Origin: a virus
Length of the DNA: 64,000 bases
Strand: one strand, 5' to 3'
IMG/VR virus record: IMGVR_UViG_3300043424_000316
Coordinates: 1-64,000 of that record
Below, in pieces: positions 12,905 through 36,953 of the stretch (the stretch's first letter is position 1; each line of letters begins with the position of its first letter). Both the position numbers and the translations under genes were made by a program. The notes under the pieces are model-generated. The model saw nothing but the letters and a program-made list of their open reading frames with translations. It was not told the DNA's origin and did no database searches.

Positions 12905-13588
12905 TTATTTAGTTTTATCGTTTACAAATTCATCCAATGAATTGTACATAGATGATGTATCAAAATTACCTTCAATTATTTGATTACATCTTTTTTCAAA
13001 TAAATCTATGTGATCACCCCATCTGCTCTCAAACAAATGATAAATGTTATCATTATAGAGTGTTCCTATTCCATAATATCCATAATTTGACATTCTCCAA
13101 ACACCATCGTATTTTGGAACACCATCAAATTTTGTTGGGTATAAACATCGATATGTTTTTCCATGATATTCAGCAGTATAACTCAATTCTTCTGCTGTAT
13201 CAGATCTTTCTGATAAGTAAAAAGAAGGCATATCTAGTTCTTCATAACAAGTTTTTGATAAAACTAAAAAACAAGGAGCTGCATATACATGGGTTTTTGG
13301 TGGAATATGATTAGAAACTTGAGCTGCACCTACAAACGATTTATTATCTAATGCATATTTTATAGAATCATCGATTATTTTTCGATTAAGAGGAACACAA
13401 TCGATTTCAAAAAAAACATAAACATCAGATATAGTATTACGGCAAACTCCTGTCATCCATATTCCTTGATTGACATTCATATTTGAATACTGTATATCTA
13501 TTCCGAAGTGTTTCATAACTCGTTTGTGGGATTGTAGTATTCTATCGTCTACATTATCCCAATATAATGTATGGTATGATATTTTCAT
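12905..13588 (-). CDS. Putative glycosyltransferase (GT-A-like)
   Basis: YVFFEIDCVPLN (DxD-like), H.YAAPCFL, IYHLFESR; located in glyco cluster. Confidence 0.5.
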   Translation of the reverse strand: MKISYHTLYWDNVDDRILQSHKRVMKHFGIDIQYSNMNVNQGIWMTGVCRNTISDVYVFFEIDCVPLNRKIIDDSIKYALDNKSFVGAAQVSNHIPPKTHVYAAPCFLVLSKTCYEELDMPSFYLSERSDTAEELSYTAEYHGKTYRCLYPTKFDGVPKYDGVWRMSNYGYYGIGTLYNDNIYHLFESRWGDHIDLFEKRCNQIIEGNFDTSSMYNSLDEFVNDKTK

Positions 13589-13590
13589 CT

Positions 13591-14367
13591 TTAAATCTCT
13601 ATACTATTCCACAAATTTTCCCAATCCAAAAATGGATCCTTTTGTTCATTAAATCCCATATGAAGTGCAAGTGAAGTGATTGGTGTAAATAATTTCGCCT
13701 CCCATCTCCAAATATGATTTATTGTTGTTCCTTCATGTACTAAATTTCGTTCACCCCACTCAGTCATATATTCGGTTGATAACATATAAAATCTACTCCA
13801 ATGTTTTCTAACAAGTTCTGGACTACACATGAAAACGAAAGTAGAATACTTATTTGTTCTCCATCTTCTATTTTTTCCTAAAACTATTCTACATTCATCT
13901 ATGTAATTTGGTTTGTAGTTATCTGGATCATCAAATGGGTGTAATCCCACTTCAATTCCTAAATTTTTCTTGAATGTTTTATATGAATCCACCATTTCTT
14001 CTATTGCAGTTGGAAAATGTAAATAATCATCTTCTACAAAATAAACTAGATCTGCAGTTGAAGCTCTACCCATTTCAAATTGCATATATCCAGAATAGTT
14101 AAATCCTTTTTCTTCTAAAGGAATATATTTGTATTCGTGTTTTGAATTTTTAAATATATCGTGTAAATAATCTACTGTTTTTTGAAATGAATGATCGTCT
14201 AACCATATAAATTTTATCTTACCATCTTTATAGTTTTCTGCAGAATTTACTAACGATTTTACACATTTTCTTATTAAAGTTTGTTTATCAACTCCACAAT
14301 ATCTTGGTTCTCTTGATGGATGAATGTCTATCAAATCATGTGTTCTTAATATAATATCTAAGTTCAT
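13591..14367 (-). CDS. Glycosyltransferase family 2-like
   Basis: IWLDDHS and LVYFVEDDYLH acidic motifs, SLALHM. Confidence 0.7.
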   Translation of the reverse strand: MNLDIILRTHDLIDIHPSREPRYCGVDKQTLIRKCVKSLVNSAENYKDGKIKFIWLDDHSFQKTVDYLHDIFKNSKHEYKYIPLEEKGFNYSGYMQFEMGRASTADLVYFVEDDYLHFPTAIEEMVDSYKTFKKNLGIEVGLHPFDDPDNYKPNYIDECRIVLGKNRRWRTNKYSTFVFMCSPELVRKHWSRFYMLSTEYMTEWGERNLVHEGTTINHIWRWEAKLFTPITSLALHMGFNEQKDPFLDWENLWNSIEI

Positions 14368-14372
14368 ATCAT

Positions 14373-14969
14373 TTACCTTTTAAATAACCATGTTTGTTCA
14401 GCATAATTATATGCAGCTGCTTTTATTTTAATTACATTTGGTTTACCAAAAAAATCATCGACTGCATCCATAACGGAAGGCCATGCATAATCATCACCGG
14501 CAATATATCCACCTTTTTTCAACTTTGGAAACCAATGTTCTATATCAGATTTAACACTCGCGTAATCATGTGCTGCATCTATAAAAATAAAATCCAAACT
14601 TTCATTTTCATATAGTTTTGATGCTTCAGTTGAAGACATTCTAATTGGATTTATTACAGATTTAATAGAATACGTATTTTTTATGAACTCATCGTATAAA
14701 CCATTTGGTATTTCTAATAAAGGTTCATATGAATCATTTTTTTTATCTAAATGTTCTGATGAACCCTCCCATGTATCTATACAATCAAAAGTAATTTTCT
14801 TACCACTATTTATTATCTCAACACCCATATATGTTGAACTTTTTCCTTTCCAGCTACCAATTTCAACAAAATGATACTGATCCACATCATTACAAGAAAG
14901 AACCATTTGTGTAAAAAGTTTTTCTTGAACAAACCAACCTGGAATTTTGTAGTAATAATGGTTTATCAT
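14373..14969 (-). CDS. Class I SAM-dependent methyltransferase (Methyltransf_24-like)
   Basis: FVEIGSWKGKS, DCIDTW, DFIFIDAAHDY, GGYIAGDDY. Confidence 0.88.
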   Translation of the reverse strand: MINHYYYKIPGWFVQEKLFTQMVLSCNDVDQYHFVEIGSWKGKSSTYMGVEIINSGKKITFDCIDTWEGSSEHLDKKNDSYEPLLEIPNGLYDEFIKNTYSIKSVINPIRMSSTEASKLYENESLDFIFIDAAHDYASVKSDIEHWFPKLKKGGYIAGDDYAWPSVMDAVDDFFGKPNVIKIKAAAYNYAEQTWLFKR

Positions 14970-15976
14970 TATTTATATCCCTCAGCTAATTTGATAAGTT
15001 CTTCTCTAATTTTTAGAAACGGTTCGTCCCATTCTCCATATTTTTCTTGTCTAAATAATCTAACGGAATCATACCAAGCTGATGTATTTCCTGGAACAAC
15101 CCATGTGTAATACGGCATTATTGGAATCACTATCCATGTTGGTTTTCCCATAGCAGCTGCTAAATGTGCAACAGAAGTACAAGAAGAAATTATTAAATCA
15201 CATCCGGCTATTATATTAGCAGTTTCTTCCCATGTCTTCATTTGTTCTCTCATATCACCAAATGGAAGGCCATCTACTAAATTTTCATCTCTTTGAAGTG
15301 AATAAAATGTTGTATTTGGAATATCATGCAGGTTAATCATTAAATCTGGAGGAAATCTTCTATGTTGTTCATCTTCAAAATCTGGTGAACCACTCCATCT
15401 AATACCTACTTTTAAAGTTCCTTCTTTTGAAAATAATTTTCTCGGTTCTTTTGCAGATATAAAAGGAGATCCATCCAAATCATCTAATTCCATTCCCAAT
15501 ACATAAGCAGCTGACATTGCTGGGACCCAATAGTCATAGTGGGCACCCATTACAATCTCATTATCTACACAAATAAATCCTTGACGAGAAAATAATTCTT
15601 TTATTTCAGGAGCACATGAAACCAAAACTCTTGCACCCATTTCCTGAAATTTTTTAGCGAAACGAAAATTTAGTATTTGATCACCATAACCACCTTCACA
15701 TCTAAATAAAAGAGTTTTATTTTCAAGTGGTTCATTTTTCCATATTTTTCCAGGAAGTGCTGGTAATCCAAAAACATTTATGAAACGACCGTAATTAAAA
15801 TGTTCAAATGCTTTAATCATATTTCCATGACGCATTTCATGCCATCCTAAATTAAAAAGAACTCTTGTATCATCTTGTGACTGTTCTCTTAATATCTGTT
15901 CACTAATTTCTGGTTTTCCACCTACTGCATATGATAATGCCTCATCAAGTGGATGTATTTTTTTGTCCATAATCAT
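14969..15976 (-). CDS. TPR-associated GT9/heptosyltransferase-fold glycosyltransferase
   Basis: Short TPR-like helix pair, EGGYGDQI, KVGIRWSG, FYSLQ, DLIISSCTSVAHLAAAMGKPTW. Confidence 0.75.
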   Translation of the reverse strand: MIMDKKIHPLDEALSYAVGGKPEISEQILREQSQDDTRVLFNLGWHEMRHGNMIKAFEHFNYGRFINVFGLPALPGKIWKNEPLENKTLLFRCEGGYGDQILNFRFAKKFQEMGARVLVSCAPEIKELFSRQGFICVDNEIVMGAHYDYWVPAMSAAYVLGMELDDLDGSPFISAKEPRKLFSKEGTLKVGIRWSGSPDFEDEQHRRFPPDLMINLHDIPNTTFYSLQRDENLVDGLPFGDMREQMKTWEETANIIAGCDLIISSCTSVAHLAAAMGKPTWIVIPIMPYYTWVVPGNTSAWYDSVRLFRQEKYGEWDEPFLKIREELIKLAEGYK

Positions 15977-16035
15977 AACCTCTTATTTTTAATTACTAAT
16001 ATAAGTAATTTTCATAAATAAAACAAATGTTTTTA

Positions 16036-19000
16036 TCAATAATTTCTAATAATCATAGAATGCCGATTACCAACACTTCCGGAAATCCAACTGTATTGTG
16101 TTCCTATTTGCGTAATCAGTGAACGACTTATTTTATCTCCGGTTCCTAATTGTCCAAAATTATTATTACCCCATACCCATACAGTATTATTAGATTTTAC
16201 TACAACGGTAGAATCTTCGTTATTGTTGAGACCGGATTGAGAATTTGATATAACGGCATTCAACCAATCTGTATCATTACCCAGTTGAATTGGGGATGAT
16301 CTATTTATATTAAAATTTTGGTCATAACCTAAATTTCCACTATTTGATAAACCCCAAGACCATAATGATCCATCATTTTGTAATCCAATTACAACATACT
16401 GACCTAATGATGCACTTGCGAAAGTCGGGATTGAAGTAATTTGAATTGGACTGGATCTACTAATTACATTAGCTGTTCCAAATTGATAATTACCAGTACC
16501 CCAACCCCAAACATAACCATTATTTTGAATTGCTAAAGTAGTTACTTGAAAGTCTGTATTGGTTATGTATACTTCCGACCAATTATTTAAAGTTCCTATT
16601 TGAACGGGAGAAGATCTATTAGTAGTTACACCAATTCCTAATTGACCATTCCCGTTTGCACCCCAACCCCATAATGTCCCATCGGTTTTAATAGCCATTG
16701 CATACGTAATTCCGGCAGCAATTTTTGACCAATTATTTAAAGTTCCTATTTGAACAGGAGAAGATCGTGTTACAACGGTTCCGTCTCCTAATTGACCACT
16801 TGAATTTAATCCCCAACCCCAAAGTGTACCATCTGTTTTTATAGATACCGAGTGAGCATCACCAGCAGAAACTAATGACCAATTATTTAAAGTTCCTATT
16901 TGAACAGGAGAAGAACGGAATGATGTGGTATTATCACCCAATCTACCATTATTATTGCTACCCCAAGTCCAAAGTGTTCCATCCGTTTTTACTGCCATCG
17001 TATGTGAAAATGATGCATCAATCTTGGACCAATTATTTAATGTACCAACTTGGACTGGAGAAGAATAACTTGTTGTATTTCCAGTACCTAGTCTACCATT
17101 TGCATTGTTACCCCAAGCCCATAATGTACCATTTGTTTGTATTGCCATGGTATAACTTGAACCTGCAGAAATCTGAGACCAGTTACTTAATGTTCCGATT
17201 TGAACAGGAGAAGATCGTGTTGTAATAGTTCCATTCCCTAATTGACCAAATGAATTTGGTCCCCATGACCAAATACTGTTATCTGTTGCAAGAGCTATTG
17301 TAAAATCAGTTCCTCCAGTTGAAATCGATTTAAAACTTCTATCAGTTGGTATTTTATTTGGAACATAAGTGTTTCGATTTGTTCCAGCCAAAGTATCAGA
17401 AGCATTACCCCAAAACCAAAGTGTTCCATCCGTTTTTATACCAAAACTCCTCAGATAACCGGTTTCAACTGAATGCCAGTTTGTTAAAGTTCCAATTTGA
17501 ACCGGAGATGAACGATTAACAGCAGTGCCGTCTCCTACTTGACCACTTGTATTACGACCCCAACCCCAAAGTGTACCGTCTGTTTTAACAGCTAACATAT
17601 GTCCCTGGTCACCAGCAGAAACTTTTGCCCAATTTGTTAATGTGCCAACTTGTGTTGGAACTGATCTATTTACATTTGATACGTTTTGACCTAATGTACC
17701 TATAAAATTATCAGATCCCCATGTCCACAATGTATTGTTAGATCGTATTGCAGCAGCACTATTATCACCTTTTGCCGATATAGATGACCAGTCAGTAAAT
17801 ACACCAACTTGAACTGGACTAGATCTACTAACAATATCATTATTTATACCTAATTTACCAGATGATGCCTCACCCCATGCAAATAAAACATTATTATTTG
17901 TGATAGCATAGGTTACGAGTGCTCCACTTTCTACCACATTCCAATCGGTTCTCGTTCCGATTTGAACTGGAGAATTTTTATTTATTATACTGTTATCTCC
18001 TAACTGACCGATTGAATTTATTCCCCATGCCCAAAGTGCACCACTACTACTAATTGCCATAGTATGTGAAAATCCTGCCGAAGTCATTTTCCATTGTGTG
18101 ATATTACCAATTTGATTAGGTGAAACATAATCCCAATTTATACCACTTCTTAAATCTGTTCCAGTTGTTGGTCCAATCGACTGCAATCTTGATGTTGTAT
18201 CTATTGCATGCACAACATTTCCTGTTCCACCGGAAGAAACTTGTGACCAACTGTTCAAAGTTCCTATTTGTACGGGGGATGACTGATTATTTGATCCACC
18301 AGGAGATCCAGTTTGTGTTGATAATGGAGTATTTATAGATCCCCACAACCATAATGTATTATCATTTCTTATTGCAAAACTATTTGTACCAGATAAACCG
18401 GTGGTAATCCAAGAATTTAACGTTCCAATTTGAACAGGAGATGATCTATTTACAAAATTAGTAGACAATCCTAATATACCGTTACTATCACTACCCCACG
18501 ACCATAATGTACCGTCTGTTTTAATTGACATTACATGTGCACCACCAGAAAATACAGATGACCAGTTGGTTAATGTTCCAATTTGAACTGGACTTATTTT
18601 AGATATAGATGTTCCGTCTCCTAATTGACCATTTGTATTTGATCCCCAACTCCATAATGTTCCATCATATTTTATTGCCAAAGTGCTATTGCTACATATT
18701 GCTGCGTTTGACCAATCATTTGTTGAACCAAGTTGAGTAGGCACACTGTAAATTACTTGTCTTAATGAATATGGAGACTCACCTGCACCATAAAGTTGAT
18801 TACTATTGTTTATTACAAGTGTATATCTATAACCGGTCATTCTACCTAAAACAGGTTTATTCCAATTCGTTAATACTCCAACTTGAATTGGAGATGATCT
18901 AGATATAGTGTCACCAATCCCAAATACTCCACCATTATTTGATCCCCATGTCCACAATGTACCGTCTGTTTTGATCGCCATTACATGACCACCGCCAGAA

Positions 19001-20385
19001 AATACAGATGACCAGTTGGTCAATGTTCCGATTTGAACTGGAGAAGATATGTTGCCAGTTACACCAATTCCTAATTGACCAAAGTTATTTTCACCCCAAC
19101 CCCACAATGTTCCATCGGTTTTTATTGCCATGGTATAACTCATACCTGCAGAAATCTGAGACCAATTACTTAATGTTCCGATTTGAACAGGAGATGATCT
19201 ATTAGTATTGGTGCCAATTCCTAGTTGACCGGCAGTATTTCCACCCCATCCCCATAATGTTCCAGTTGTTTTAATTGCCATAGTAAATGAGGCACCAGAT
19301 GAAATTTTTGACCAATCGGTTTGTGCCCCAATTTGAACTGGAGATGATCTACTGGTAGTTACGCCACTTCCTAATTGTCCAGATGTATTAGTTCCCCACG
19401 ACCAAAGCGTACCAGTATTTCTTATCGCCATGGTAAATGAGTTTCCAGCTGAAATCTCTGTCCAAGAATTTAGATTTCCAATTTGAATTGGGGAAGAAAA
19501 TGTAAAATTAACTGTACCTTGTCCTATGGATCCATCCACATTAAATCCCCAACCCCACAATGTTCCATCTGTTTTAATTGCAACGGTATGATTTCCTCCA
19601 GAAAAAACTTTACTCCAATTTGTTAAAGTTCCTAATTGAACTGGAGATGATTTAAAAACAAATGATCCCGTTGTCCATAACATACCATCGGTTTCAGAAC
19701 CCCAACCCCATAATGTCCCATCGGTTTTTATCATGGTTATAGTGGCATTATTACCAACTGTTGTTGTTCCGTTTGCCCAATTTTGAGGATAATTTACAAT
19801 CGCTAATTCTGAAGCAGGTGGGTATATTGACAACCCCCCATTTGCATCAGAACCCCAACCCCATAATTTTCCATCACTTGTTATTCCAATACTGTGTTTA
19901 TTACTACTTGCATTTGGAGCTACAAAAGATGACCAATTTGTAAGCGTTCCAATTTGAACTGGAGATGAACGATTTATAGTCGTACCATCTCCTATTTGAC
20001 TACTGATATTATTTCCCCATGCCCATAACGTTCCATTTGTTCTTATAGCAATAGTTTCGGCATTGCCGGCTTTTACATTAGACCATGTATTTAGTGTACC
20101 AATTTGAACTGGAGATGATCTACTAACAGAATCATTTGTACCCAACTGTCCATCTAAATTTCTACCCCAACCCCAAAGTGTGCCATCCGTTTTAACAGCC
20201 ATCGTATGTGACGCTCCAACGGAAACCACTGACCATGTTGTTCCAGAAACAACATCTCTAAAAAATCCTTCGGAAATAGAATTATTTAATTGTCCCCAAG
20301 CGGTATTACCATTACCCCACAATTCAGTTGTTGGTATGTATGGGGTATATGATCTAGAAACATTGAGTAATATATCCTTTATCAT
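16036..20385 (-). CDS. Giant RCC1/BLIP-II repeat protein (about 28 blades); likely receptor-binding/fibre tip
   Basis: About 50-aa repeats AIKTDGTLWGWG.N..GQLG.G....RSSPVQIGTL.NWS; follows the fibre gene. Confidence 0.9.
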   Translation of the reverse strand: MIKDILLNVSRSYTPYIPTTELWGNGNTAWGQLNNSISEGFFRDVVSGTTWSVVSVGASHTMAVKTDGTLWGWGRNLDGQLGTNDSVSRSSPVQIGTLNTWSNVKAGNAETIAIRTNGTLWAWGNNISSQIGDGTTINRSSPVQIGTLTNWSSFVAPNASSNKHSIGITSDGKLWGWGSDANGGLSIYPPASELAIVNYPQNWANGTTTVGNNATITMIKTDGTLWGWGSETDGMLWTTGSFVFKSSPVQLGTLTNWSKVFSGGNHTVAIKTDGTLWGWGFNVDGSIGQGTVNFTFSSPIQIGNLNSWTEISAGNSFTMAIRNTGTLWSWGTNTSGQLGSGVTTSRSSPVQIGAQTDWSKISSGASFTMAIKTTGTLWGWGGNTAGQLGIGTNTNRSSPVQIGTLSNWSQISAGMSYTMAIKTDGTLWGWGENNFGQLGIGVTGNISSPVQIGTLTNWSSVFSGGGHVMAIKTDGTLWTWGSNNGGVFGIGDTISRSSPIQVGVLTNWNKPVLGRMTGYRYTLVINNSNQLYGAGESPYSLRQVIYSVPTQLGSTNDWSNAAICSNSTLAIKYDGTLWSWGSNTNGQLGDGTSISKISPVQIGTLTNWSSVFSGGAHVMSIKTDGTLWSWGSDSNGILGLSTNFVNRSSPVQIGTLNSWITTGLSGTNSFAIRNDNTLWLWGSINTPLSTQTGSPGGSNNQSSPVQIGTLNSWSQVSSGGTGNVVHAIDTTSRLQSIGPTTGTDLRSGINWDYVSPNQIGNITQWKMTSAGFSHTMAISSSGALWAWGINSIGQLGDNSIINKNSPVQIGTRTDWNVVESGALVTYAITNNNVLFAWGEASSGKLGINNDIVSRSSPVQVGVFTDWSSISAKGDNSAAAIRSNNTLWTWGSDNFIGTLGQNVSNVNRSVPTQVGTLTNWAKVSAGDQGHMLAVKTDGTLWGWGRNTSGQVGDGTAVNRSSPVQIGTLTNWHSVETGYLRSFGIKTDGTLWFWGNASDTLAGTNRNTYVPNKIPTDRSFKSISTGGTDFTIALATDNSIWSWGPNSFGQLGNGTITTRSSPVQIGTLSNWSQISAGSSYTMAIQTNGTLWAWGNNANGRLGTGNTTSYSSPVQVGTLNNWSKIDASFSHTMAVKTDGTLWTWGSNNNGRLGDNTTSFRSSPVQIGTLNNWSLVSAGDAHSVSIKTDGTLWGWGLNSSGQLGDGTVVTRSSPVQIGTLNNWSKIAAGITYAMAIKTDGTLWGWGANGNGQLGIGVTTNRSSPVQIGTLNNWSEVYITNTDFQVTTLAIQNNGYVWGWGTGNYQFGTANVISRSSPIQITSIPTFASASLGQYVVIGLQNDGSLWSWGLSNSGNLGYDQNFNINRSSPIQLGNDTDWLNAVISNSQSGLNNNEDSTVVVKSNNTVWVWGNNNFGQLGTGDKISRSLITQIGTQYSWISGSVGNRHSMIIRNY

Positions 20386-20394
20386 AGTATAACC

Positions 20395-22308
20395 TTATAG
20401 ATTTTGAGCACCAATAAAACCATACCAATTAGTTCCTTGATTTGTTGTAATAAAACCATAAATATCTTTTTTTCCATTTGTTGATGTAACAGATGGTGGC
20501 AATCCACCAGACCAAGTAACAGCAGAACCCCAATTCCAAACATAAGGGCTTCCATTTCCAGTTGTAACTAATGTAAAACTACCAGCATAATTTGTTGCAG
20601 GTGGATTTGTTATTGTAAAACTGTTTACATTATTATTTACAGTTACTTCAAAAACGTTAGCACTTGATAAATCAAGTGTCAATCCAGTGGGAACACCACC
20701 TATTACAACAGTTGCTTCTCTTTCTTCAATATCAGTCAATCTTGTAGTTGCTGATATAATAGCACTGCCCGTAATGTTTAATGTTGTTCCATCAAATGAT
20801 AGATTAGTCTCTGCATTGGCAGAATTAGAACTACCATCGGATGTTAGTATTCTATTATCAGATGCGTTAGAAATTGTTGAAAATCCAGTGCCAGAAGTTC
20901 CAGATGTTCCAGTTGCACCGGTTGCACCAGATGTACCACTTGTTCCAGATGTCCCATTTGCACCAGAAGTTCCAGATGTTCCAGTTGCACCGGTTGCACC
21001 GGATGTACCACTTGTTCCGGATACACCAGTAGCACCAGAAGTTCCAGATGTACCAGATGTTGCAGCAGAATAACTTGTTCCGTTTATTATCAGTGAACCA
21101 TTTATGTCCAATGAACCCGTTATATCGGTGTTTGAATAAATGGTAACACGTGAACCGTTATCAAATATATTTGAATTTGTAATGTGGTCACTACCTTGTG
21201 ATTTTGCAATATAATTTAGAGTAAGACCGGATTCGTCCCCAAGTGAACCAGTATTTCTTGGTCCAGATATAAACATTCCACCAGAATATGTTGATCCACT
21301 AACCTGTTGATATATCCATTTATTATTTTGACTATCCCATAATAATGATGATGTTGCTTGGTGTGAAAGAGAACCACTATCGTAAACAACGAGTCCACCA
21401 AATCTTTCTGCAGGTTCAAAAACATTTACTGAAATTTTAGATGAACTCACTGCAAGTTGAGATGCAGTTACATATGTTATAGATGAAGAACCGAATACAC
21501 TTAAATTTTGTGTTATTACAAGCGATCCAGTTATTATTTGATCACCAACAAGTGTAAGCAAACTTCCATTAAATGATAGATTAGTCTCTGCATTGGCAGA
21601 ATTGGAACTACCATCGGATGTTAGTATTCTATTATCAGATGCATTCGATATTGTTGAAAATCCAGTACCAGATGTTCCAGATGAACCACTGCTACCATTA
21701 AATCCAGAACTTCCAGATGAACCAGAGGTTCCAGATGATCCAGAACTTCCAGATGAACCAGAAGTTCCACTTAGACCAGTTTCACCAGATGTTCCAGACG
21801 AACCACTTGTTCCAGATGTTCCAGATGAACCACCACTTCCATTAACACCAGATGTACCAGATGTTCCAGATACACCATCTACTCCAGAAATTCCAGATGA
21901 ACCTGAACTACCTGAAGATCCGGATTCACCAGATGTTCCAGAAGATCCAGATTCACCAGATGTACCACTACTTCCACTTGTACCATTAGCTCCATTAGCT
22001 CCAGATGTTCCCGATGTACCGTTTGCTCCAGAAGTTCCCGATGTACCAGAAGAACCACTTGTTCCAGAACTTCCCGATGAACCAGAATTTCCGGATGTTC
22101 CTGATGTTCCGTTTGCACCGGAAGTTCCACTTGTACCGTTTGCTCCAGATGTTCCAGATGTTCCAGCAACACCAAATTCAACACCACCAGCAGTTACACC
22201 GTCACCGATATAAAATTTTTTGGTATCTGTTGTGTATATTGGTTCACCTTGAACAGGTGTTATACTTGTTCTATCAGCTTCCGTTCCGCGTCTTAATCGT
22301 AGTGGCAT
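20395..22308 (-). CDS. Tail fibre with Mtd-N-like N-terminus and G-T-S triplet tracts
   Basis: LRLRRGT...GEPIYTTDTKKFYIGDG N-terminal module; two (G-T/S-S)n tracts; C-terminal LDLSSANVFEVT...DIYGF domain. Confidence 0.75.
   Translation of the reverse strand: MPLRLRRGTEADRTSITPVQGEPIYTTDTKKFYIGDGVTAGGVEFGVAGTSGTSGANGTSGTSGANGTSGTSGNSGSSGSSGTSGSSGTSGTSGANGTSGTSGANGANGTSGSSGTSGESGSSGTSGESGSSGSSGSSGISGVDGVSGTSGTSGVNGSGGSSGTSGTSGSSGTSGETGLSGTSGSSGSSGSSGTSGSSGSSGFNGSSGSSGTSGTGFSTISNASDNRILTSDGSSNSANAETNLSFNGSLLTLVGDQIITGSLVITQNLSVFGSSSITYVTASQLAVSSSKISVNVFEPAERFGGLVVYDSGSLSHQATSSLLWDSQNNKWIYQQVSGSTYSGGMFISGPRNTGSLGDESGLTLNYIAKSQGSDHITNSNIFDNGSRVTIYSNTDITGSLDINGSLIINGTSYSAATSGTSGTSGATGVSGTSGTSGATGATGTSGTSGANGTSGTSGTSGATGATGTSGTSGTGFSTISNASDNRILTSDGSSNSANAETNLSFDGTTLNITGSAIISATTRLTDIEEREATVVIGGVPTGLTLDLSSANVFEVTVNNNVNSFTITNPPATNYAGSFTLVTTGNGSPYVWNWGSAVTWSGGLPPSVTSTNGKKDIYGFITTNQGTNWYGFIGAQNL
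20794..21672. repeat. Internal duplication of about 100 bp (20794-20893 and 21571-21672)
   Basis: Both copies encode GTGFSTISNASDNRILTSDGSSNSANAETNLSF and differ by only a few synonymous changes. Confidence 0.9.
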
Positions 22309-22341
22309 TAAAATACTCGTGTAAATTCAATATAAATTATT

Positions 22342-22575
22342 TTAGTTACCATTTGCATTTATCCTATTAAGCAAACTTCTAAGCAACTCCGTTTCATCAT
22401 CAGTTAATGGTGTCTGATTTGATTGAGACTGTACATTTTTTGCACCAAAGTCTGTCTCATGTTCAGATGTAGCTGGTACGGCAGTGCAACCATCTGGCCA
22501 TTGTACTTCTGAAATACCGTCCCATATAACTATATTAGTTACAAAACCATCTTCATTTATTAAAGCATATCTCAT
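22342..22575 (-). CDS. Small fibre-associated protein
   Basis: MRYALINEDGFVTNIVIWDG; ATG 22575 with AGGA SD, immediately after the fibre stop (track start 22602). Confidence 0.6.
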   Translation of the reverse strand: MRYALINEDGFVTNIVIWDGISEVQWPDGCTAVPATSEHETDFGAKNVQSQSNQTPLTDDETELLRSLLNRINANGN

Positions 22576-22577
22576 TT

Positions 22578-27325: not shown

Positions 27326-27330
27326 TTGTA

Positions 27331-29268: not shown

Positions 29269-29282
29269 AAAACACCTTTAAT

Positions 29283-30161
29283 TTAATATGCCAAAACGTA
29301 AACGCTTCCAGTATATGATGCACCGGTTGCAACTCCAGGAGCAGTTTGTAGTGAATTTCCTATTCTTTGTGTTTGAGAGTTGCTATGAAAGTCATTGCCC
29401 CAATAAGACCAAAATGTTTGCAATGGGTTATCATTTCTCCACGCATCGCCCTTTCCACTTGTTGATGATAGTGATCCTGTAAATGCACATAATGCTTGAA
29501 TATCATTATCTGAATCCAGATTTATTCCCATAATAACAAATCTAGTTGGAACTGCGGCTGGTGTTGTATTTGTTCTGAATGAATTACCACCACTTGCAAC
29601 AAGTAGACCGGAATAACCATTAACACCTGCAGTATGAAACCTTGCACTTGATGCAGTCCATTTGATGTTGTCTAAAACAGCTCCACCGTCAAACCTTGAT
29701 GCGGTCTGTTGAAACCTATCCAATCTATCTAATATATTGTAAATAGATTCTGTTTGAGTTGATTCTACTAAATCGTATATCAGATAATTATTATGTGATG
29801 TTGGATCATTTGAATTAGATGTCCCATCTACAAAAGCAATTTTTGTTATATTTGTTTTATTAAAGAATGCAGGATAAAGACCCTGTGAATCCCCGAATGT
29901 TGTTCTTGAACTTGCTGTTGTACTTGTTAAACTGGCACTTCTAAAAAGAGTTGTTCCAGGATTTCCCATATTAGTTCGTAATATAGATGCAGTCCAATTT
30001 GCTGAAGTTACTTTTTTACCATTATATCTCAATAAAACTTCCCATCCGATAGACTCTGTTACCGGAGTGGTTGATGCTGTTAATGAAAATGATCCACTCG
30101 TAGATACACGTCTCAATATAAATCCACCATTTCCACCATTATTTGATATTTTCAAACTCAT
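29283..30161 (-). CDS. Hypothetical Ser/Thr-rich virion protein
   Basis: 292-aa ORF, ATGA-coupled to the upstream small ORF. Confidence 0.55.
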   Translation of the reverse strand: MSLKISNNGGNGGFILRRVSTSGSFSLTASTTPVTESIGWEVLLRYNGKKVTSANWTASILRTNMGNPGTTLFRSASLTSTTASSRTTFGDSQGLYPAFFNKTNITKIAFVDGTSNSNDPTSHNNYLIYDLVESTQTESIYNILDRLDRFQQTASRFDGGAVLDNIKWTASSARFHTAGVNGYSGLLVASGGNSFRTNTTPAAVPTRFVIMGINLDSDNDIQALCAFTGSLSSTSGKGDAWRNDNPLQTFWSYWGNDFHSNSQTQRIGNSLQTAPGVATGASYTGSVYVLAY

Positions 30162-30334
30162 TTCAAATATAACTGCTGAAGTTTGTAAACAAGATCATAT
30201 ACGACTTGAACCTCTTTTCCCTTAAATGTACTATCGGAAATCAATTTTAATAAAAATTCCAATTCCTCCTTAGAAAAAGAAGGAATTGGAGGTATTGTAT
30301 TATTTTCATTATTTTCTTTTTTAACTAAACCCAT
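30158..30334 (-). CDS. Small 58-aa helical protein
   Basis: Below ORF-track cutoff. MGLVKKENNENNTIPPIPSFSKEELEFLLKLISDSTFKGKEVQVVYDLVYKLQQLYLK; AGGT SD; ATGA overlap with the next gene. Confidence 0.7.
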   Translation of the reverse strand: MGLVKKENNENNTIPPIPSFSKEELEFLLKLISDSTFKGKEVQVVYDLVYKLQQLYLK

Positions 30335-30358
30335 GATAAAACCTATTATTTTTCATAA

Positions 30359-30390
30359 CAAATATACAAAATTTTATGAATATATCCAAA
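30359..30390 (-). promoter_or_regulatory. Bacteroidota-type housekeeping promoter (TTTG-N20-TATATTTG)
   Basis: + strand caaa 30387-30390 and caaatata 30359-30366, spacing 20 nt; matches the -33 TTTG / -7 TAnnTTTG consensus. Confidence 0.55.
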
Positions 30391-31654
30391 TGTTTCCAGT
30401 ATTACTATCAACAAAAATGGTTCCAAATCCACTTGCACCACCATAAACAGGATCGGATGCTGGATTCGCAGTACCTTCTTGTACAACACCCATGAACGCA
30501 TCTGGAGTTAGAGATGTTGCAGTTGGAGATGCATTATTTTGTAATGCCCAACGATCTGCACTCGCATCAACACCCAATGCATATCCTGTACTTGCTGCCT
30601 GTTGTATTATTATACCACCATCTGTATTTGTATCTGAACCAGACGCAAATAGGGCAAACTTGTCTTCAATAGTAATGTTTGTAGTATCAACAGTTGTTGT
30701 TGTACCATTGACAACCAAATCACCACTAACAACAAGTTTATTATTTACAGTTGTTGTTGATGAACCATTACCTATATTAACTGCAGTAGCACCAGTAGTA
30801 CCAACATTTATTGTTGTTGCATTTGTTGTAGCAACATTAAATGTTGCAGCGGATGTTGTAATATCACCACCATTAACTGCAATATCACCTGTAAGAGTGA
30901 CATCAACAAATTGAGGACTATCGCCAGTTTGAAGACCGGTATCAACATCGGTTTGAACACCGTTAATCACTGCACGAACTGTGCCTTGTGATGGAGAACT
31001 GAATGATGAACCACTAACTGTTCCAGTAGGAAGAGCAGATACTACACCACTTGTAAATGTGGTTGATGCAGTGTTCAAAGTAATGTTTGGTGTACTACCC
31101 TCACCACTTGTTACACTTGATACAATAGCACCGGAACCGGAAACTGTTGCAACATAATCACCGGTTGTATCAGTTCCGAGAGCAACCGAATTAGCTTGTA
31201 TGGTTGCAACACCAGTTGATGCATTGATGAGAATATCACCACTTACACCAGCATAAGATGATGAGTTAAAAAATGTCTGCATTGATCCCGAATTAACAGA
31301 AAGACTATCTGTTGCTTCAACGGACAATCCTGTACCCGCAAGGTCTGTTAGAAGATTTCCATAAGTGAATTTCTTATTTCCACTTGTTGCATCACCTGGA
31401 TCATCATTGATAAAAAATTTATCAGTTGATGCCAGATTAGTTGTTGCATTTGTTGGAAATGATGGAGTTGCAGTTACTCCTGTCAGTCCAGTACCATCTC
31501 CTGTAAAGGAACCTGTGAAAGAACCAGTAAGACGAGTATTTGCCTGGGTTGGTTGAATTTGTTGATTAGTACCGACTAATACCCCAACCGAAGCACTCAC
31601 CGATGCAAGTTCGGCTACACTACCCGATACTATAAGTTTTTTCCACGTTGCCAT
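30374..31654 (-). CDS. Tail fibre/virion structural protein
   Basis: MATWKKLIVSGS N-terminus shared with 22578-25190; FTGSFTGDGTGLT and GDLVVNGTTTTV fibre-type motifs; GGAGA SD. Confidence 0.7.
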   Translation of the reverse strand: MATWKKLIVSGSVAELASVSASVGVLVGTNQQIQPTQANTRLTGSFTGSFTGDGTGLTGVTATPSFPTNATTNLASTDKFFINDDPGDATSGNKKFTYGNLLTDLAGTGLSVEATDSLSVNSGSMQTFFNSSSYAGVSGDILINASTGVATIQANSVALGTDTTGDYVATVSGSGAIVSSVTSGEGSTPNITLNTASTTFTSGVVSALPTGTVSGSSFSSPSQGTVRAVINGVQTDVDTGLQTGDSPQFVDVTLTGDIAVNGGDITTSAATFNVATTNATTINVGTTGATAVNIGNGSSTTTVNNKLVVSGDLVVNGTTTTVDTTNITIEDKFALFASGSDTNTDGGIIIQQAASTGYALGVDASADRWALQNNASPTATSLTPDAFMGVVQEGTANPASDPVYGGASGFGTIFVDSNTGNIWIYS

Positions 31655-31678
31655 TTAATTCTCCAAAATTTGAGTTGT

Positions 31679-33238
31679 TTATATGAATAAATATAAGTTA
31701 CTTCCTGAAATAACTAAGCTACCAGTGGAATCTATTATTGGTAGCTGGTTTATAGTTGGTAATACAAACGTACCTTCAACATTCAGACTTCCACTCATAT
31801 AAGCAGATCCAGTGAAAATCAATAAATCACCAGACAATGTTGTATCACCATTTATTGTTGTGCTGCCTGTAACACTCATTGAACCAGTAAATTGGTGTCT
31901 ATCATCTAATGTATCACCAAAACGAGATGATCCAGATACAAGTAGTGTTTGATAATTAACTACCGATGAGGAAACAACATAAGTTCTAGCGGTTATAGTG
32001 CCACCGACTAAAAGATTTCCGTCAAAGTTTGCATTAGTTGCATACAGAGTGTTAAATCTTGGTGAATCTGTTTCTGCCAATCCTAACACACCTCTTTGTC
32101 CGGAACCAGATACTATATTTGTTCCAAATAAGTGTGAAAGTGTTTGAATTGAGGATGAAACTATACCGACTGGTTTGCTTAAAATGTTATCCCAATATAC
32201 ACTGCCACTCAATTCACCATCAGTAACAAATCCTAAATCTTGAATTTGTTGTGAAGACGATATTACACCGGAAAATACACCACTAAAAAGTGGAGCGGTA
32301 ATAGTACCTTGTGACGTTAATGATCCACTTAAAAATAATGAACCAGTAAATTGGTGAGTATCATCTACGGTATCGCCGAATTGCGTTGAACCGGATGCCT
32401 TTATTGATTGTATATCAACGATAGAAGATGATACAACATAGGTTCTAGCAGTAAGTGTTCCGTCTATAAATGCATTACCATCTATTGTTAAGTTACTACC
32501 GGATATGTTACCGAAAACAACATTATCAGTTGTACCCAATCCGATAGAATTTCTTTGATTTGAAGAAGATATTATTCCTGTTCCACCCAATACTTGAACG
32601 GAACTAGATACAATACCACTTGGTTTGTTTAATATATCATCCCAAACACTAGATGTAATAAATCCAAAATTTTGAATTTGTTGTGAAGATGATATTGTAC
32701 CAGCAGCAACAAGATTTGTTAAACCACTACCATCACCAACAAATGTCCCATATACTGATCCAGATACATAAACTGAACCTGTAAATTGATGTGTGTCTAA
32801 TATATCGTTACCGAATATATTTGAACCACTACTAAATGATTGGGTTACATTTATCACCGATGATGATATTATCAACTGTCTAGCAGTTAAATCACCAGTC
32901 AGAGTAAGGTTGTTAAATGTTGGTGAGTCTGTGGTTGCAAGTCCTAACACGCTTCTTTGTGCAGAACTCGATACTATATTTGTTCCCGAAAGGTGTGAAA
33001 GTGTCTGTGCCGATGATGACACAGTTCCAGAAGGCATAGATGCAGGTGAAAGATTGGTTAATTGTGAACCATCCCCCTTGAAGTAATACGCATCTACCGT
33101 TCCAGACACAGCCAATAATGTAACAAGAGATCCAGTTCCGTCAAGAAGTGTTGAATCATCAACGGGATCGGTTTGAAGCAATCTATAATAAGATTCGGAA
33201 ACAAATAGATTGGTTAGGTCTCTTTGTGTACTTGGCAA
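31679..33238 (-). CDS. Fibre-like structural protein with three internal repeats
   Basis: Three copies of AR..(V/I)(V/I)SSS...SGS..FG....D.HQFTGS; TTG start. Confidence 0.7.
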   Translation of the reverse strand: MPSTQRDLTNLFVSESYYRLLQTDPVDDSTLLDGTGSLVTLLAVSGTVDAYYFKGDGSQLTNLSPASMPSGTVSSSAQTLSHLSGTNIVSSSAQRSVLGLATTDSPTFNNLTLTGDLTARQLIISSSVINVTQSFSSGSNIFGNDILDTHQFTGSVYVSGSVYGTFVGDGSGLTNLVAAGTISSSQQIQNFGFITSSVWDDILNKPSGIVSSSVQVLGGTGIISSSNQRNSIGLGTTDNVVFGNISGSNLTIDGNAFIDGTLTARTYVVSSSIVDIQSIKASGSTQFGDTVDDTHQFTGSLFLSGSLTSQGTITAPLFSGVFSGVISSSQQIQDLGFVTDGELSGSVYWDNILSKPVGIVSSSIQTLSHLFGTNIVSGSGQRGVLGLAETDSPRFNTLYATNANFDGNLLVGGTITARTYVVSSSVVNYQTLLVSGSSRFGDTLDDRHQFTGSMSVTGSTTINGDTTLSGDLLIFTGSAYMSGSLNVEGTFVLPTINQLPIIDSTGSLVISGSNLYLFI

Positions 33239-33284
33239 TTATTCTCTCTCATAGTGTATATGTTTGAATAAATACATTCTACAC

Positions 33285-33297
33285 TATAAATATGTAA
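33285..33297 (-). promoter_or_regulatory. Putative late-promoter motif (TTACATATTTATA) followed by a leader hairpin
   Basis: Intergenic; adjoining atagtgta(33251-33258)/tacactat(33280-33287) stem. Confidence 0.55.
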
Positions 33298-33305
33298 AAG
33301 ATTTT

Positions 33306-36300
33306 TTATGATATAATAATTACTGTATGTTGTAACAGAGTTGGATTTGCATTAAATACAAGCGTTGCGTTATTATTATCATCAGCGGTAACAACATATT
33401 CTTTGGTTGCATCACCAACAGGAGCATACGGTGGTATTAAATCATAAGTTGCATTTTCCCGCACATATACAATAATATCTCTGGTTCCTAAATTATGAGT
33501 AAAAGTAAAAGTATTGGTAAATCCTGTTCCAAATCCAGATGTATACTTACCAGCACTATTTCCTGATGTTCCGGATGTTCCAGTATTACCACTTGTACCA
33601 CTTGTACCAAATGTTTGTCCAGATGTACCAGATGTACCATTTGCACCAGATGTTCCTGATGTGCCCGGCACACCAAATGCACCATCGGCTCCAGATGTTC
33701 CAGAACTACCACTACTTCCAGATGTTCCAGAACTACCACTAATTCCAGATGTTCCACTCTCACCAGAAGTTCCACTTGATCCAGCAAGACCATTAACACC
33801 ACTTGTTCCAGATGAACCAGAATTACCAGATGTACCGGATGTACCTGAATTTCCACTGCTTCCGGATGTTCCATTTACTCCAGAAGTTCCACTACTTCCA
33901 GACAAACCAGCATCACCTTTCTCTCCCGATGTTCCGGACGAACCGGATGTTCCACTCAGTCCACTACTTCCAGATGTTCCACTTATTCCAGATAATCCGG
34001 ATGTTCCAGAAGAACCAGAAGAACCAGACAATCCAGAAGTTCCAGATGAACCACTTTCTCCAGATGTTCCCGATACTCCAGATGTTCCAGAAACTCCAGA
34101 TGTTCCGGACGTTCCACCAGTTCCTTGTGGTCCAGGAGCACCAGATAGCGATATACTCCAACTTGAATATGTACCACTTCCTGTTATCGTTGTAATGTTT
34201 ATTATTAACTCACCAGTTCCACTGTTATACGATGTAATATCCCCTTCCATTTTATTAGAACTATTATATGCAGCTATTACATTCTGACCAACACTTAATT
34301 GTAATCCAGTATCAACTGTAAATGTTTTTGATCCTGTTCCTATTGTATTTGAAGTAGAAGATGTTGTTGTATATTTGTCTCCAGAAAGACCTGCAGTTCC
34401 AGATGTACCATTTACTCCAGATGTTCCGGATGTTCCTGGTTGACCGGGCATACCATTTATACCATTTGTTCCAGATGTTCCGGATGTTCCAGAAACACCA
34501 CTCGAACCACTTTCTCCAGATGAACCACTTGTACCCGATGATCCACTATTTCCAGATGTTCCCGATGTTCCAGGTGAACCAGTTGCACCAGTTGCACCAT
34601 TTGCTCCAGATGTACCAGAAGTTCCGGATGTTCCGGGTGAACCAGTTGCACCGGTTGCACCACTTACTCCAGATGTACCAGAAGTTCCACTTTGTCCAGA
34701 TGTACCAGAAGTTCCCGATGTTCCATGTGTACCACCGGTTCCACCCGATCCAAATGTTCCACCGTTTATCACAGCATTTTGAATAGTTACTTGACATCCA
34801 TCCCATTTAATATAAGATTCCCCACAAGTTCCATTATTACAACTTCCACCTCCGGAAGTACCAGCAGTACCAAAAACTGGATTATACGATCCACTCCAAC
34901 CTAAAAGAAATTCAGAACTCGAACCGATTATGAATAAATCAAAACTAGATGGTGTTGATCCAAAATTGAATGTGGATCCACATTGATTTATCATGTTTAT
35001 ACTGTTCTGTGAGAACGTACCAGATGCTAGATTGTAAGGATTTCCGGTTGTTAATCCCCATCCAAAACTTGATGGATTATTTGGATTGTTTATTGCATTC
35101 TGAACACCTTGATACAGATATGGTTGGATTGCAGATCCCGATGTTGTTGCGTTTGATGTATTAGCATATAGTTGCATACCACTTGCAGTGTATGAAGCAA
35201 GATATGTTGAACCAGTTATTATGTTATCATCACCGTAAATGTAAGAATTACCACCCTCAAAAAATAAATCATTATTTACAGTTTCAACATTAGATTCTCT
35301 TAAAGTATCATTAAAGTATTGGATTTTCAAATCCATATACTCTAATTTGTGATTTTGATTCATTGGAACATTAAGATTTATCCGTTTCGGAGTAAATCCA
35401 GGTTCAACTGTTTCTTTTATTTCAATATCTTGTAAAACAACGCCAGGATGTAATAAAAATTTTACTCTACCATCACCGTCATTATCAGGAGAAATAGTTA
35501 ATTTATTATTTCTTTTTAATTCACTTTCTACATTTTTTAATTCTACACTACCAACATATTTACCAAATTCAGTGTCATTATTGAAACAACTACCAGTTAC
35601 ATATATCTCTAATTTTGGTTCAAGTTTTGTAGTAGATGGTCTGTATCTATACGCATCGAAAGTAATTTCATACAAAGTATCTTTGTAAAAAGTTGTTGAT
35701 AGACTTGCGGATTGTTCAATTATTATTGCCTGATTTCCTACCAAGGATGCGATAGTTGATTCTATACCGGTAAATTTATTTGTATTGTATAAATTTAATG
35801 TTGGAGTTGGTGCACCATTTATTGAAGATGCAGTCCAATAACTTATAGCGTTTATAGATATTGGTGAACTATCACCTGCAACAGTTGCAACTCGTGATGG
35901 TTCAAATTTCCCAATAGGAAAATCAACGATTCGAGAATCTTCATCTATTAGTATATTTTTTGGTTCAATTTTACCGTCATAGATTTCTTTGAAATCCGAA
36001 CTTGTATCGTTCTTACTTTTCGCTAATACCTTAACACGACTTACAACACCAACAGTTGGATCTATCTTATTTATTTTTAACTTAGCATAGTTTTTTATAT
36101 TCTGAGTTATATTTTTTGATGTTGGTTTTTGTTGGTAAACTAATCTATACGGTTGTATTTCTGCATTTGATATTTCTGTCAGTTGTCCATCTGTTCCAAT
36201 GACTTTTAATTTTTTATCTAATTCCAACACATAGTTGTTATTAACAGATTTAACACTTGCACTATATTCAAAACTACCAGTTTGGTAGGATATGAGTGGT

Positions 36301-36953
36301 TCTATATTATCAGAAAGATTTGGAAATGATATAGTTGCACCAACAAGGTTTTCTGTAAATGTTTCACCTAGAGAAAATATCTTGGGTTTACCGTTTTCCA
36401 ATGAATATCTAGCAGTTCCAGTTTGAACTGATTCCTTATTACCACCTGTAAATCTATCTTCTATTACAGAGTATTTTCTTTCTGTTATAGATACTTCTGG
36501 ATTTTCTTCAAATAATATGTCATTATCATTTGGTTTGAATTTATCAACACCAATAGTATAGACAAATTTTATATTGTTCTGTACAATACTGTTGTTTGGA
36601 AGTTTTTTTAATTCCAAATCAACATTACTAGTTCCGATAAAAGTTATTGTACCAGTTCCGAGTGATGTTGTTCTATAAACATAAACCGAAACTATTTTTG
36701 TTCCATCTGCTTCTTCTGCACTTGTTACATGATGAAAAACGTTATTTCCACTTGCATCCAATACTTCAATGTATATTGGATAATACGGTGAAAGGTTATC
36801 AAAGTTGGGTTTTATCTTAAACCCATTTTTACCGGCAGAGAAATAATCTGGTATAGATATTATGTTAAAAAAATTAGAAGATAGTTCTGAATCATCAATA
36901 AATTGAGTATCGGAAACTATTAAATTACGTTTAAGTCTTTTATATTCTACCAT
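33306..36953 (-). CDS. Large virion protein: globular N-terminal region plus long G-T/S-S triplet tracts
   Basis: About 740-aa beta-rich N-terminus, two long SGTSG tracts, C-terminal FTHNLGT domain. Confidence 0.72.
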   Translation of the reverse strand: MVEYKRLKRNLIVSDTQFIDDSELSSNFFNIISIPDYFSAGKNGFKIKPNFDNLSPYYPIYIEVLDASGNNVFHHVTSAEEADGTKIVSVYVYRTTSLGTGTITFIGTSNVDLELKKLPNNSIVQNNIKFVYTIGVDKFKPNDNDILFEENPEVSITERKYSVIEDRFTGGNKESVQTGTARYSLENGKPKIFSLGETFTENLVGATISFPNLSDNIEPLISYQTGSFEYSASVKSVNNNYVLELDKKLKVIGTDGQLTEISNAEIQPYRLVYQQKPTSKNITQNIKNYAKLKINKIDPTVGVVSRVKVLAKSKNDTSSDFKEIYDGKIEPKNILIDEDSRIVDFPIGKFEPSRVATVAGDSSPISINAISYWTASSINGAPTPTLNLYNTNKFTGIESTIASLVGNQAIIIEQSASLSTTFYKDTLYEITFDAYRYRPSTTKLEPKLEIYVTGSCFNNDTEFGKYVGSVELKNVESELKRNNKLTISPDNDGDGRVKFLLHPGVVLQDIEIKETVEPGFTPKRINLNVPMNQNHKLEYMDLKIQYFNDTLRESNVETVNNDLFFEGGNSYIYGDDNIITGSTYLASYTASGMQLYANTSNATTSGSAIQPYLYQGVQNAINNPNNPSSFGWGLTTGNPYNLASGTFSQNSINMINQCGSTFNFGSTPSSFDLFIIGSSSEFLLGWSGSYNPVFGTAGTSGGGSCNNGTCGESYIKWDGCQVTIQNAVINGGTFGSGGTGGTHGTSGTSGTSGQSGTSGTSGVSGATGATGSPGTSGTSGTSGANGATGATGSPGTSGTSGNSGSSGTSGSSGESGSSGVSGTSGTSGTNGINGMPGQPGTSGTSGVNGTSGTAGLSGDKYTTTSSTSNTIGTGSKTFTVDTGLQLSVGQNVIAAYNSSNKMEGDITSYNSGTGELIINITTITGSGTYSSWSISLSGAPGPQGTGGTSGTSGVSGTSGVSGTSGESGSSGTSGLSGSSGSSGTSGLSGISGTSGSSGLSGTSGSSGTSGEKGDAGLSGSSGTSGVNGTSGSSGNSGTSGTSGNSGSSGTSGVNGLAGSSGTSGESGTSGISGSSGTSGSSGSSGTSGADGAFGVPGTSGTSGANGTSGTSGQTFGTSGTSGNTGTSGTSGNSAGKYTSGFGTGFTNTFTFTHNLGTRDIIVYVRENATYDLIPPYAPVGDATKEYVVTADDNNNATLVFNANPTLLQHTVIIIS

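Follow-up and report, generated by a model that had tools for sequence, protein, structure and literature searches.

Which molecules are modified by the sugar-transferring enzymes of a phage when their genes lie among its fibre genes? The question is raised by positions 12905-36953 of a 64,000-nucleotide stretch of viral DNA (referred to as the window), which derives from a 77,220-bp IMG/VR viral contig with a CheckV completeness estimate of 44%. As the first-pass annotation of this DNA had described, the region combines six glycosyltransferase (GT) domains and two methyltransferase domains with Ser/Thr-rich fibre genes on the same strand. Five of the GT domains and both methyltransferase domains were recovered by profile searches; the sixth GT domain (12905-13588) is without a profile match. 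We propose that two of these genes, encoding a GT4-FkbM and a GT4-TibC-like fusion protein, form a cassette that O-glycosylates Ser/Thr residues within Gly-Thr/Ser-Ser tracts of the phage's own fibres, a reading to which comparison of sequences leads us to assign a probability of roughly 0.6.

A TibC-like enzyme and its candidate acceptors

The proposed cassette and the two fibre proteins considered as its acceptors are encoded as follows.

27331-29268, minus strand: GT4 and FkbM-type methyltransferase fusion, first cassette gene (PF00534, PF05050, TIGR01444)
25235-27334, minus strand: GT4 and TibC/Aah-family fusion, second cassette gene (Pfam, TIGR04414, PDB 4RAP)
33306-36953, minus strand: fibre protein 1, 1215 amino acids, candidate acceptor (Pfam Collagen, E 2.5e-37; PHROG tail-fibre families)
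20395-22308, minus strand: fibre protein 2, 637 amino acids, candidate acceptor (Pfam Collagen, E 3.2e-31; Mtd_N, E 2.7e-10; PHROG tail-fibre families)

In the protein encoded by 25235-27334, an N-terminal GT4 domain (amino acids 1 to ~330; PF13692 E 2.4e-8, PF00534 E 5.6e-8) is followed by a TibC/Aah domain (amino acids ~333-699, nucleotides 25235-26338). The likely true start of the gene is the ATG at 27325, which yields a 696 amino acid protein, and this form is present in the protein collection. The C-terminal half matches positions 14-373 of the 374 positions of the NCBIfam model TIGR04414 with 287.8 bits (E 1.1e-85), the curated family cut-off being 200 bits, and the TibC crystal structure (PDB 4RAP) is matched at E 1.4e-59 with ~360 residues aligned. 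Using the residue roles given in the structural paper on TibC (PMC4358343), the alignment equates D424 of the window protein with the catalytic base Asp110, T541 and K545 with the phosphate binders Thr226 and Lys230, W616 with Trp305, which binds the heptose O4, and C651/C654/C668/C680 with the iron-finger residues Cys339/342/358/370. No variation is seen at any of these residues among the 81 phage domains that were aligned, and the assignment to the TibC/Aah enzymes made in the first-pass annotation is therefore retained.

The surroundings of the donor nucleotide are different. Arg286 of TibC contacts the adenine N1, which provides specificity for an ADP-activated donor, and the R286A mutant is inactive (PMC4358343). 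Its counterpart in the window protein is I597, the 81 phage domains have Val, Ile, Thr, Leu or Ala at this position (Arg in 0/81), and no compensating conserved basic residue was found in the columns flanking this position in these domains. Pro300, the position for D,D/L,D selectivity, corresponds to G611, and the alignment places GYM in the window protein at the thumb tip, as compared with GFV in TibC, for whose family a ring-shaped dodecamer is characteristic. Because the catalytic set is kept and both Arg286 and Pro300 are replaced, the domain is, judged by its sequence, a true member of the TibC/Aah family, in which the core for catalysis is predicted to be intact and the pocket for the nucleotide to be changed. 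The partner protein encoded by 27331-29268 consists of an N-terminal GT4 half (PF00534 E 3.1e-9) and a C-terminal FkbM half (PF05050 E 2e-16; TIGR01444 E 1e-22).

Fibre 1 begins with a conserved, non-collagen region of ~730 amino acids, which is followed by two Gly-X-Y tracts at amino acids 732-860 (nucleotides 34374-34760) and 938-1114 (nucleotides 33612-34142). Fibre 2 consists of a Mtd_N head, Gly-X-Y tracts at amino acids 46-216 (nucleotides 21661-22173) and 419-475 (nucleotides 20884-21054), and a C-terminal tail-fibre-like domain. When Gly-X-Y triplets are counted in runs of eight or more, fibre 1 has 102 triplets and fibre 2 has 76, together ~180; the proteins contain 326 and 227 Ser+Thr residues, respectively, with GTS occurring 38 and 33 times and GSS 15 and 17 times. 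In both proteins, position X is mostly Thr/Ser and position Y mostly Ser, and Gly recurs at every third residue for up to 59 successive triplets, far beyond chance. Pro/Hyp or charge pairs can stabilise a triple helix; Pro is counted 7 times in the 102 triplets of fibre 1 and is absent from the 76 triplets of fibre 2. These collagen-like proteins would represent tail fibres rather than other virion fibres.

A tract protein is also encoded by the nearest isolate, the Microcystis phage Mel-JY01 (190 kb; L002, PP395634), which is syntenic with the contig from the fibre block through the terminase. Positions 2-3052 on the plus strand of its record read as a single open reading frame (ORF) of at least 1016 amino acids with 202 Gly-X-Y triplets and 40% Ser+Thr, over which the deposited annotation places two hypothetical coding sequences on the minus strand and a short one on the plus strand. 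This ORF extends beyond the first nucleotide of the linear record and is located two genes upstream of a FkbM-TibC fusion protein.

Co-occurrence of the cassette with Gly-X-Y tracts

The link between cassette and tracts was analysed in four independent tests at three levels, starting with syntenic relatives, i.e. loci that were fetched with the fibre gene 31679-33238 and that share the gene order of the window. The cassette class comprises 10 loci including the window, and for the cassette-less class only loci spanning the cassette slot were counted (n=9). All 10 cassette loci have 39-403 Gly-X-Y triplets in the flanking fibres, whereas all 9 cassette-less loci have 0-10 triplets, in runs of at most 5 (Fisher p 1e-5, uncorrected for phylogeny). 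Identities of 73-94% were obtained in both classes for the genes that separate fibre 1 from the cassette. Relatives without the cassette retain the N-terminal ~725 amino acids of fibre 1 but have lost its tracts, and of fibre 2 they retain only the C-terminal domain (amino acids 521-637). Loci anchored on the SbcCD gene repeat this pattern and reveal a further lineage, in which SbcCD, GT4, TibC and collagen fibre follow one another (L207, L210).

Relatives of the TibC-like protein are encoded on 326 viral contigs, and the best 80 of these loci, with flanks of up to 10 kb, were clustered at 85% identity into 44 clusters. With a Ser/Thr collagen ORF defined by at least 20 triplets, 30 of the 44 dereplicated TibC-bearing loci contain such an ORF within the available flank. 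In 14 of the 44 it directly adjoins TibC, and 12 of these 14 ORFs follow TibC on the same strand at a distance of 44-115 bp; several of the 14 tract-negative clusters have truncated flanks. The 8,328 triplets of these neighbours have Thr (51%) or Ser (37%) in position X and Ser (72%) or Asn (17%) in position Y, with Pro at no more than 1%. GT4 homologues are found in 62 and FkbM homologues in 46 of the 80 TibC-bearing viral loci, and the domain fusions of the TibC-type enzyme and the gene order differ among phage lineages. A 735-kb uncultured phage (L122, LR756501) encodes a GT4-containing protein of 1140 amino acids and a GT4-TibC fusion at 13113-21086, and this pair adjoins a divergent 695 amino acid protein with 29 Gly-X-Y triplets.

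A reverse test was based on 47 viral contigs that were chosen solely by the DNA pattern (GGN ACN WSN)x6 and on 47 control contigs of at least 20 kb that were chosen by an arbitrary AT-rich 18-mer. TIGR04414 was found above its cut-off in 16 of the 47 pattern contigs as compared with 1 of the 47 controls (odds ratio 24, p 7e-5), and the sole control contig with TibC has 63 tract matches, 2.5 kb from the TibC gene.

The third level is provided by a bacterial set of 36 loci with homologues in the genome collection. A stand-alone TibC-like gene is located 8-150 bp from the gene for a small signal-peptide protein in Methylobacter, other Methylococcales, Polaromonas and Burkholderiaceae, and the N-terminal part of this protein is a (GTS/GTT/GTA)n tract. 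Homologues with Ile/Val/Thr at the Arg286 position are found near a secreted (GTS)n protein in 13 of 21 cases, at distances of 8-532 bp, whereas none of the 17 homologues with Arg at this position (Selenomonadaceae, Lentisphaeria, Acidisphaera and others) has a tract neighbour; the phage domains all belong with the non-Arg group. In loci L149, L151, L160, L162, L165, L168 and L177 (bacterial chromosomes and metagenome-assembled genomes), the signal-peptide proteins next to the stand-alone TibC-like gene are ~290-320 amino acids long, each with a (GTS/GTT)n tract and most with two repeats of a Cys-containing domain, and this bacterial protein family appears to be undescribed. The expectation that TibC-like genes accompany GTS/GSS-tract fibres in related genomes was thus borne out in close relatives (10/10 versus 0/9) and extends to the wider phages and to bacteria.

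Proposed mode of action, alternative targets and known systems

The mechanism that we propose would operate in the cytoplasm of the infected cell. The GT4-FkbM and GT4-TibC-like proteins would together act as a protein O-glycosylation cassette on the phage's own fibre proteins, with Ser/Thr residues of the proline-free Gly-Thr/Ser-Ser tracts in fibre 1 (33306-36953) and fibre 2 (20395-22308) as the presumed acceptors. If TibC is taken as a guide, its phage relative would place the first sugar, possibly a heptose, on the hydroxyl group; the fused and neighbouring GT4 domains may then extend this sugar, and the FkbM domain may O-methylate it. Effects on triple-helix stability, on shielding of the fibres or, as also suggested by the first-pass annotation, on adhesion may follow. 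The claim of the first-pass annotation that the region's enzymes build glycans on virion fibres is maintained as a proposal for the TibC cassette, on comparative grounds, and is not carried over to the enzyme block at 12905-15976.

Several observations weigh against tract glycosylation by this cassette. The support for fibre glycosylation is a genomic association, and all of it is comparative. In a tree of the intervening fibre gene, 2-3 state changes are most parsimonious and the well-supported branches are compatible with one, so that the contrast among close relatives would reflect few independent events. About half of the near-complete tract-bearing contigs are without TibC, and tracts are thus not strictly dependent on a TibC-type enzyme. 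A 175-kb contig of 85% completeness (G004) has a TibC gene and zero tracts, and in a complete genome (G003) five tract genes are located at least 18 kb from TibC. Replacement of Arg286 by Ile would remove the adenine contact of TibC. The acceptor of TibC/Aah is a β-helical autotransporter passenger, whereas the phage candidate is a Gly-X-Y fibre tract. Finally, a search of the contig, within the limit of its 44% completeness, for CTP_transf_like, SIS_2 and RfaE domain I gave only a sub-threshold match at 12140-12316, and a heptose-pathway gene was not found in the complete relative G003 either.

These last points also bear on the sugar. With no heptose-pathway gene in the contig or in G003, the donor would have to be supplied by the host, and the replacement of Arg286 makes ADP-heptose an uncertain donor. 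Some other phage lineages carry split HldE-like kinase and adenylyltransferase genes directly after TibC (L018 11073-12575, L076 11078-12206, L064 11462-12202, with a small cupin only in the L018-type). Their best models are heptose-1-phosphate adenylyltransferase and heptose-7-phosphate kinase, both below the equivalog cut-offs, and phages of these types appear from their sequences to carry their own heptose-activation step. For the family, an activated heptose is therefore favoured; the heptose suggested by the first-pass annotation gains from these HldE-like genes and loses from the Arg286 replacement and the lack of a heptose gene in the contig, which leaves roughly even odds that the sugar is a heptose.

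The sub-threshold CTP_transf_like match belongs to 11660-12403 (minus strand), which encodes 247 amino acids and has no NCBIfam match. This protein is homologous to the N-terminus of a 639 amino acid 'cytidylyltransferase like protein' of Mel-JY01 and to that of proteins of 921-1145 amino acids in other relatives. It is present with or without the TibC cassette and may be a nucleotidyltransferase remnant or domain.

Other virion proteins could be the substrates instead. The window encodes three further fibre-like proteins with Ser/Thr-rich, probably β-structured domains outside the tracts.

31679-33238, minus strand: Ser/Thr-rich (28%) fibre-like protein, conserved (73-94% identity) whether or not a relative carries the cassette
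30374-31654, minus strand: Ser/Thr-rich (29%) fibre-like protein, N-terminal WKKLIVSGS motif common to 22578-25190
22578-25190, minus strand: fibre protein of 870 amino acids that ends in a glycine-rich domain, 26% Ser+Thr (PF21722 E 1.2e-10, DUF5907)

Bacterial autotransporter heptosyltransferases (BAHT), to which TibC and Aah belong, recognise a β-helix in their acceptor (PMC4358343), and such fibre domains are closer in kind to the TibC acceptors than a Gly-X-Y tract is. In the tract-less loci L024, L062 and L076, the cassette is still positioned inside the fibre block, beside fibre-like proteins of 2250-2448 amino acids, and G004 likewise combines TibC with the absence of a tract. Homologues of 31679-33238 and 30374-31654 are, however, equally present in cassette-less relatives, co-variation with the cassette is seen for the tract itself, and the bacterial partners are small proteins that have the (GTS)n tract as their common feature. 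We therefore consider it unlikely that the cassette glycosylates these domains rather than the tracts. The Mel-JY01 homologue of 31679-33238 is annotated as 'structural protein'. The gene 22578-25190 follows that of the TibC-like protein after 45 bp, at a position that is occupied by a collagen-tract fibre in relatives.

Envelope glycans are common targets of GT4, GT2, GT9 and FkbM enzymes. The cassette could accordingly modify a host structure, such as lipopolysaccharide, capsule, S-layer or a host (GTS)n protein, e.g. for blocking superinfection, and its location would then reflect the usual clustering of accessory genes. Phage GTs that alter the host serotype are known, as cited in passages of PMC12619734, and the enzyme block at 12905-15976 is independent of the tracts. 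A host target is nevertheless slightly less probable still than the non-tract fibre domains, since members of the TibC family are protein O-glycosyltransferases (PMC4358343), the cassette co-varies in an all-or-none manner with tracts in the phage's own fibres, and it is enriched 24-fold in tract-bearing contigs. That there is no functional link, either because mosaic fibre modules are exchanged as blocks, with 2-3 changes or possibly one behind the contrast among close relatives, or because the enzymes act on DNA, is very improbable, as both classes share the genes between tracts and cassette, the pairing recurs with other gene orders, other domain fusions and in bacterial chromosomes, and Pfam and NCBIfam profile searches found no domain from a DNA glycosyltransferase family among the region's enzymes, which led us, in agreement with the initial annotation, to reject DNA glycosylation.

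For tract glycosylation by the cassette, the closest known systems are TibC-TibA and Aah-AIDA-I of E. coli (BAHT; TIGR04414; PDB 4RAP/4RB4). The BAHT family is known as a modifier of virulence adhesins in enterobacteria. The window enzyme belongs to the same family by the curated model, and in both settings the enzyme is encoded next to a surface protein that is repetitive and rich in Ser/Thr. Different from TibC/Aah, the window enzyme is virus-encoded, carries a GT4 domain in the same polypeptide and has a GT4-FkbM protein as its partner; profile searches found no autotransporter gene in the window's fibre block, where the neighbours are phage fibre genes. Glycosylation of BclA was reportedly described by Daubenspeck in 2004 (in the reference list of PMC11923368). 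BclA of the Bacillus anthracis exosporium has a collagen-like Gly-X-Thr region with O-linked oligosaccharides that are capped by methylated anthrose (PMC6222408, PMC7793302) and thus resembles, by analogy only, a surface filament with a glycosylated collagen-like region. It differs in its unrelated glycosyltransferases, rhamnose-based sugars and proline-rich repeats and in being a bacterial spore protein. In the cuticle collagen of Riftia, O-glycosylated Thr is said, after work by Mann in 1996 and Bann in 2000 (both in the reference list of PMC11923368), to replace hydroxyproline in triple-helix stabilisation. That collagen is an animal protein with galactose on Thr in position Y, whereas the window tracts have Thr mostly in X and Ser in Y.

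To our knowledge, there are very few documented cases of phages that glycosylate their virions with enzymes of their own, none of them with a TibC-type enzyme or a collagen-like acceptor. One case is that of mycobacteriophages, whose structural proteins are modified by GTs from the same phage (Freeman et al. 2023, as cited in PMC12619734); according to the citing text, the glycans are on the C-termini of capsid and tail-tube subunits, and that text mentions neither a TibC-type enzyme nor a collagen-like acceptor. Literature searches on phage TibC, phage heptosyltransferases with glycosylated fibres, O-glycosylation of collagen-like fibres and Mel-JY01 found nothing that describes such a system.

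A more far-reaching reading, which we offer tentatively and hold to be somewhat short of an even chance, is that TibC/Aah enzymes with an aliphatic residue in place of Arg286 form a distinct branch devoted to the O-glycosylation of proline-free Gly-Thr/Ser-Ser tracts, in which sugar instead of hydroxyproline would stabilise or stiffen 'glyco-collagen' rods, and that phages build long glycosylated virion fibres in this way, with enzymes of their own. Under this reading, the branch would be common to hundreds of aquatic phages and to environmental bacteria (Methylococcales, Burkholderiales). If true, the BAHT family would gain a new substrate class, and the stability and function of proline-free Gly-Ser/Thr 'collagens', which comprise up to thousands of residues and are common in aquatic phages, would be explained. 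The non-Arg286 TibC domain would then be a genomic marker that predicts glycosylated fibres, and the Microcystis phage Mel-JY01 would be a cultured test system. Such modifications also bear on host recognition and on the masking of fibres from proteases or defence receptors.

The second enzyme block and the surrounding genes

The remaining enzymes of the region are encoded in a second block at 12905-15976.

14969-15976, minus strand: GT9-like protein (PF01075 E 4e-4, 20.2 bits, a weak match)
14373-14969, minus strand: Methyltransf_24 methyltransferase (E 4.3e-19)
13591-14367, minus strand: GT2 (PF00535 E 1.2e-8)
12905-13588, minus strand: GT-A-fold protein, candidate (AlphaFold2 model and Foldseek; no Pfam match)

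The first-pass annotation had assigned all six GTs to one system, which was abandoned because relatives that have neither the cassette nor the tracts still carry the 13591-15976 genes, in combinations that vary. The GT9-like gene is kept together with GT2 or Methyltransf_24 in the cassette-less and tract-less loci L132, L134-L137, L141 and L144, and a homologue of 12905-13588 was not found in the fetched loci. Since the GT9-like, GT2 and Methyltransf_24 genes persist in tract-less relatives, the block is not assignable to the tract system; it may act on a host structure or on some other protein of the virion.

For the GT9-like protein, the score is just below the PF01075 gathering score of 22, and phmmer against PDB gave a best E of 0.24 only. 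While the inventory of six GT and two methyltransferase domains among same-strand Ser/Thr fibres stands, the 'TPR' label of 14969-15976 is kept only as a lead: Pfam found no TPR family in this gene, and the label derives from an Atlas lead to TPR+GT9 clusters. PHROG profiles gave no match for most enzymes of the region, and the PHROG label 'DNA methyltransferase' for 14373-14969 was not adopted, as Pfam indicates TylF/O-methyltransferase kin.

An alignment-free model of 12905-13588 was unusable (pLDDT 34.5), whereas AlphaFold2 with a 33-sequence alignment reached a pLDDT of 94.9. Foldseek with the latter model retrieved GT-A enzymes only, with E 6e-5 to 1e-3 and modest TM values of 0.40-0.52, including Mimivirus R699, the GT domain of human LH3, B3GalT6, GalNAc-T2 and SpsA. 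The protein has a D-x-D-type motif, with D-x-D as the consensus, E-I-D in the window and D63 invariant. The model thus suggests a candidate GT-A fold glycosyltransferase, at modest TM.

The contig has a GC content of 33%, and its minus strand holds nearly all genes, including all those within 12905-36953. It encodes a portal, a large terminase, a baseplate wedge, a primase and a fused SbcCD-like nuclease, which points to a large tailed phage, here an uncultured aquatic one. In the direction of transcription, SbcCD is followed by fibre 1, the two Ser/Thr-rich fibre-like genes, the small gene 29283-30161 and the GT4-FkbM and GT4-TibC-like genes; the order continues with the glycine-rich fibre, fibre 2, an RCC1 protein, the GT9-like, Methyltransf_24 and GT2 genes, 12905-13588 and a tail assembly chaperone. 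The genes of this series not listed above are the following.

36955-40137, minus strand: SbcCD, Mre11-like phosphoesterase and Rad50-like ATPase in one 1060 amino acid polypeptide
29283-30161, minus strand: small Ser/Thr-rich protein, 292 amino acids, present by synteny in relatives with and without the cassette
16036-20385, minus strand: RCC1-repeat protein, 1449 amino acids, 25% Ser+Thr (PF25390, PF00415)
12393-12857, minus strand: phage tail assembly chaperone at the end of the fibre block (PF16778 E 3.5e-17)

The 29283-30161 protein has no match in Pfam, PHROG or NCBIfam profile searches. The RCC1 protein, which consists almost wholly of RCC1 repeats, is probably structural. It is not tied to the cassette, as it is found beside the GT9-like gene in cassette-less relatives too; in relatives its gene is always followed by the GT9-like gene, and in some of them (L131, L191, L192, L199 and L205) RCC1 repeats are fused to the fibre-1 homologue. 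The SbcCD fusion is positioned directly upstream of the fibre block and is encoded with 39-95% identity in many viral contigs.

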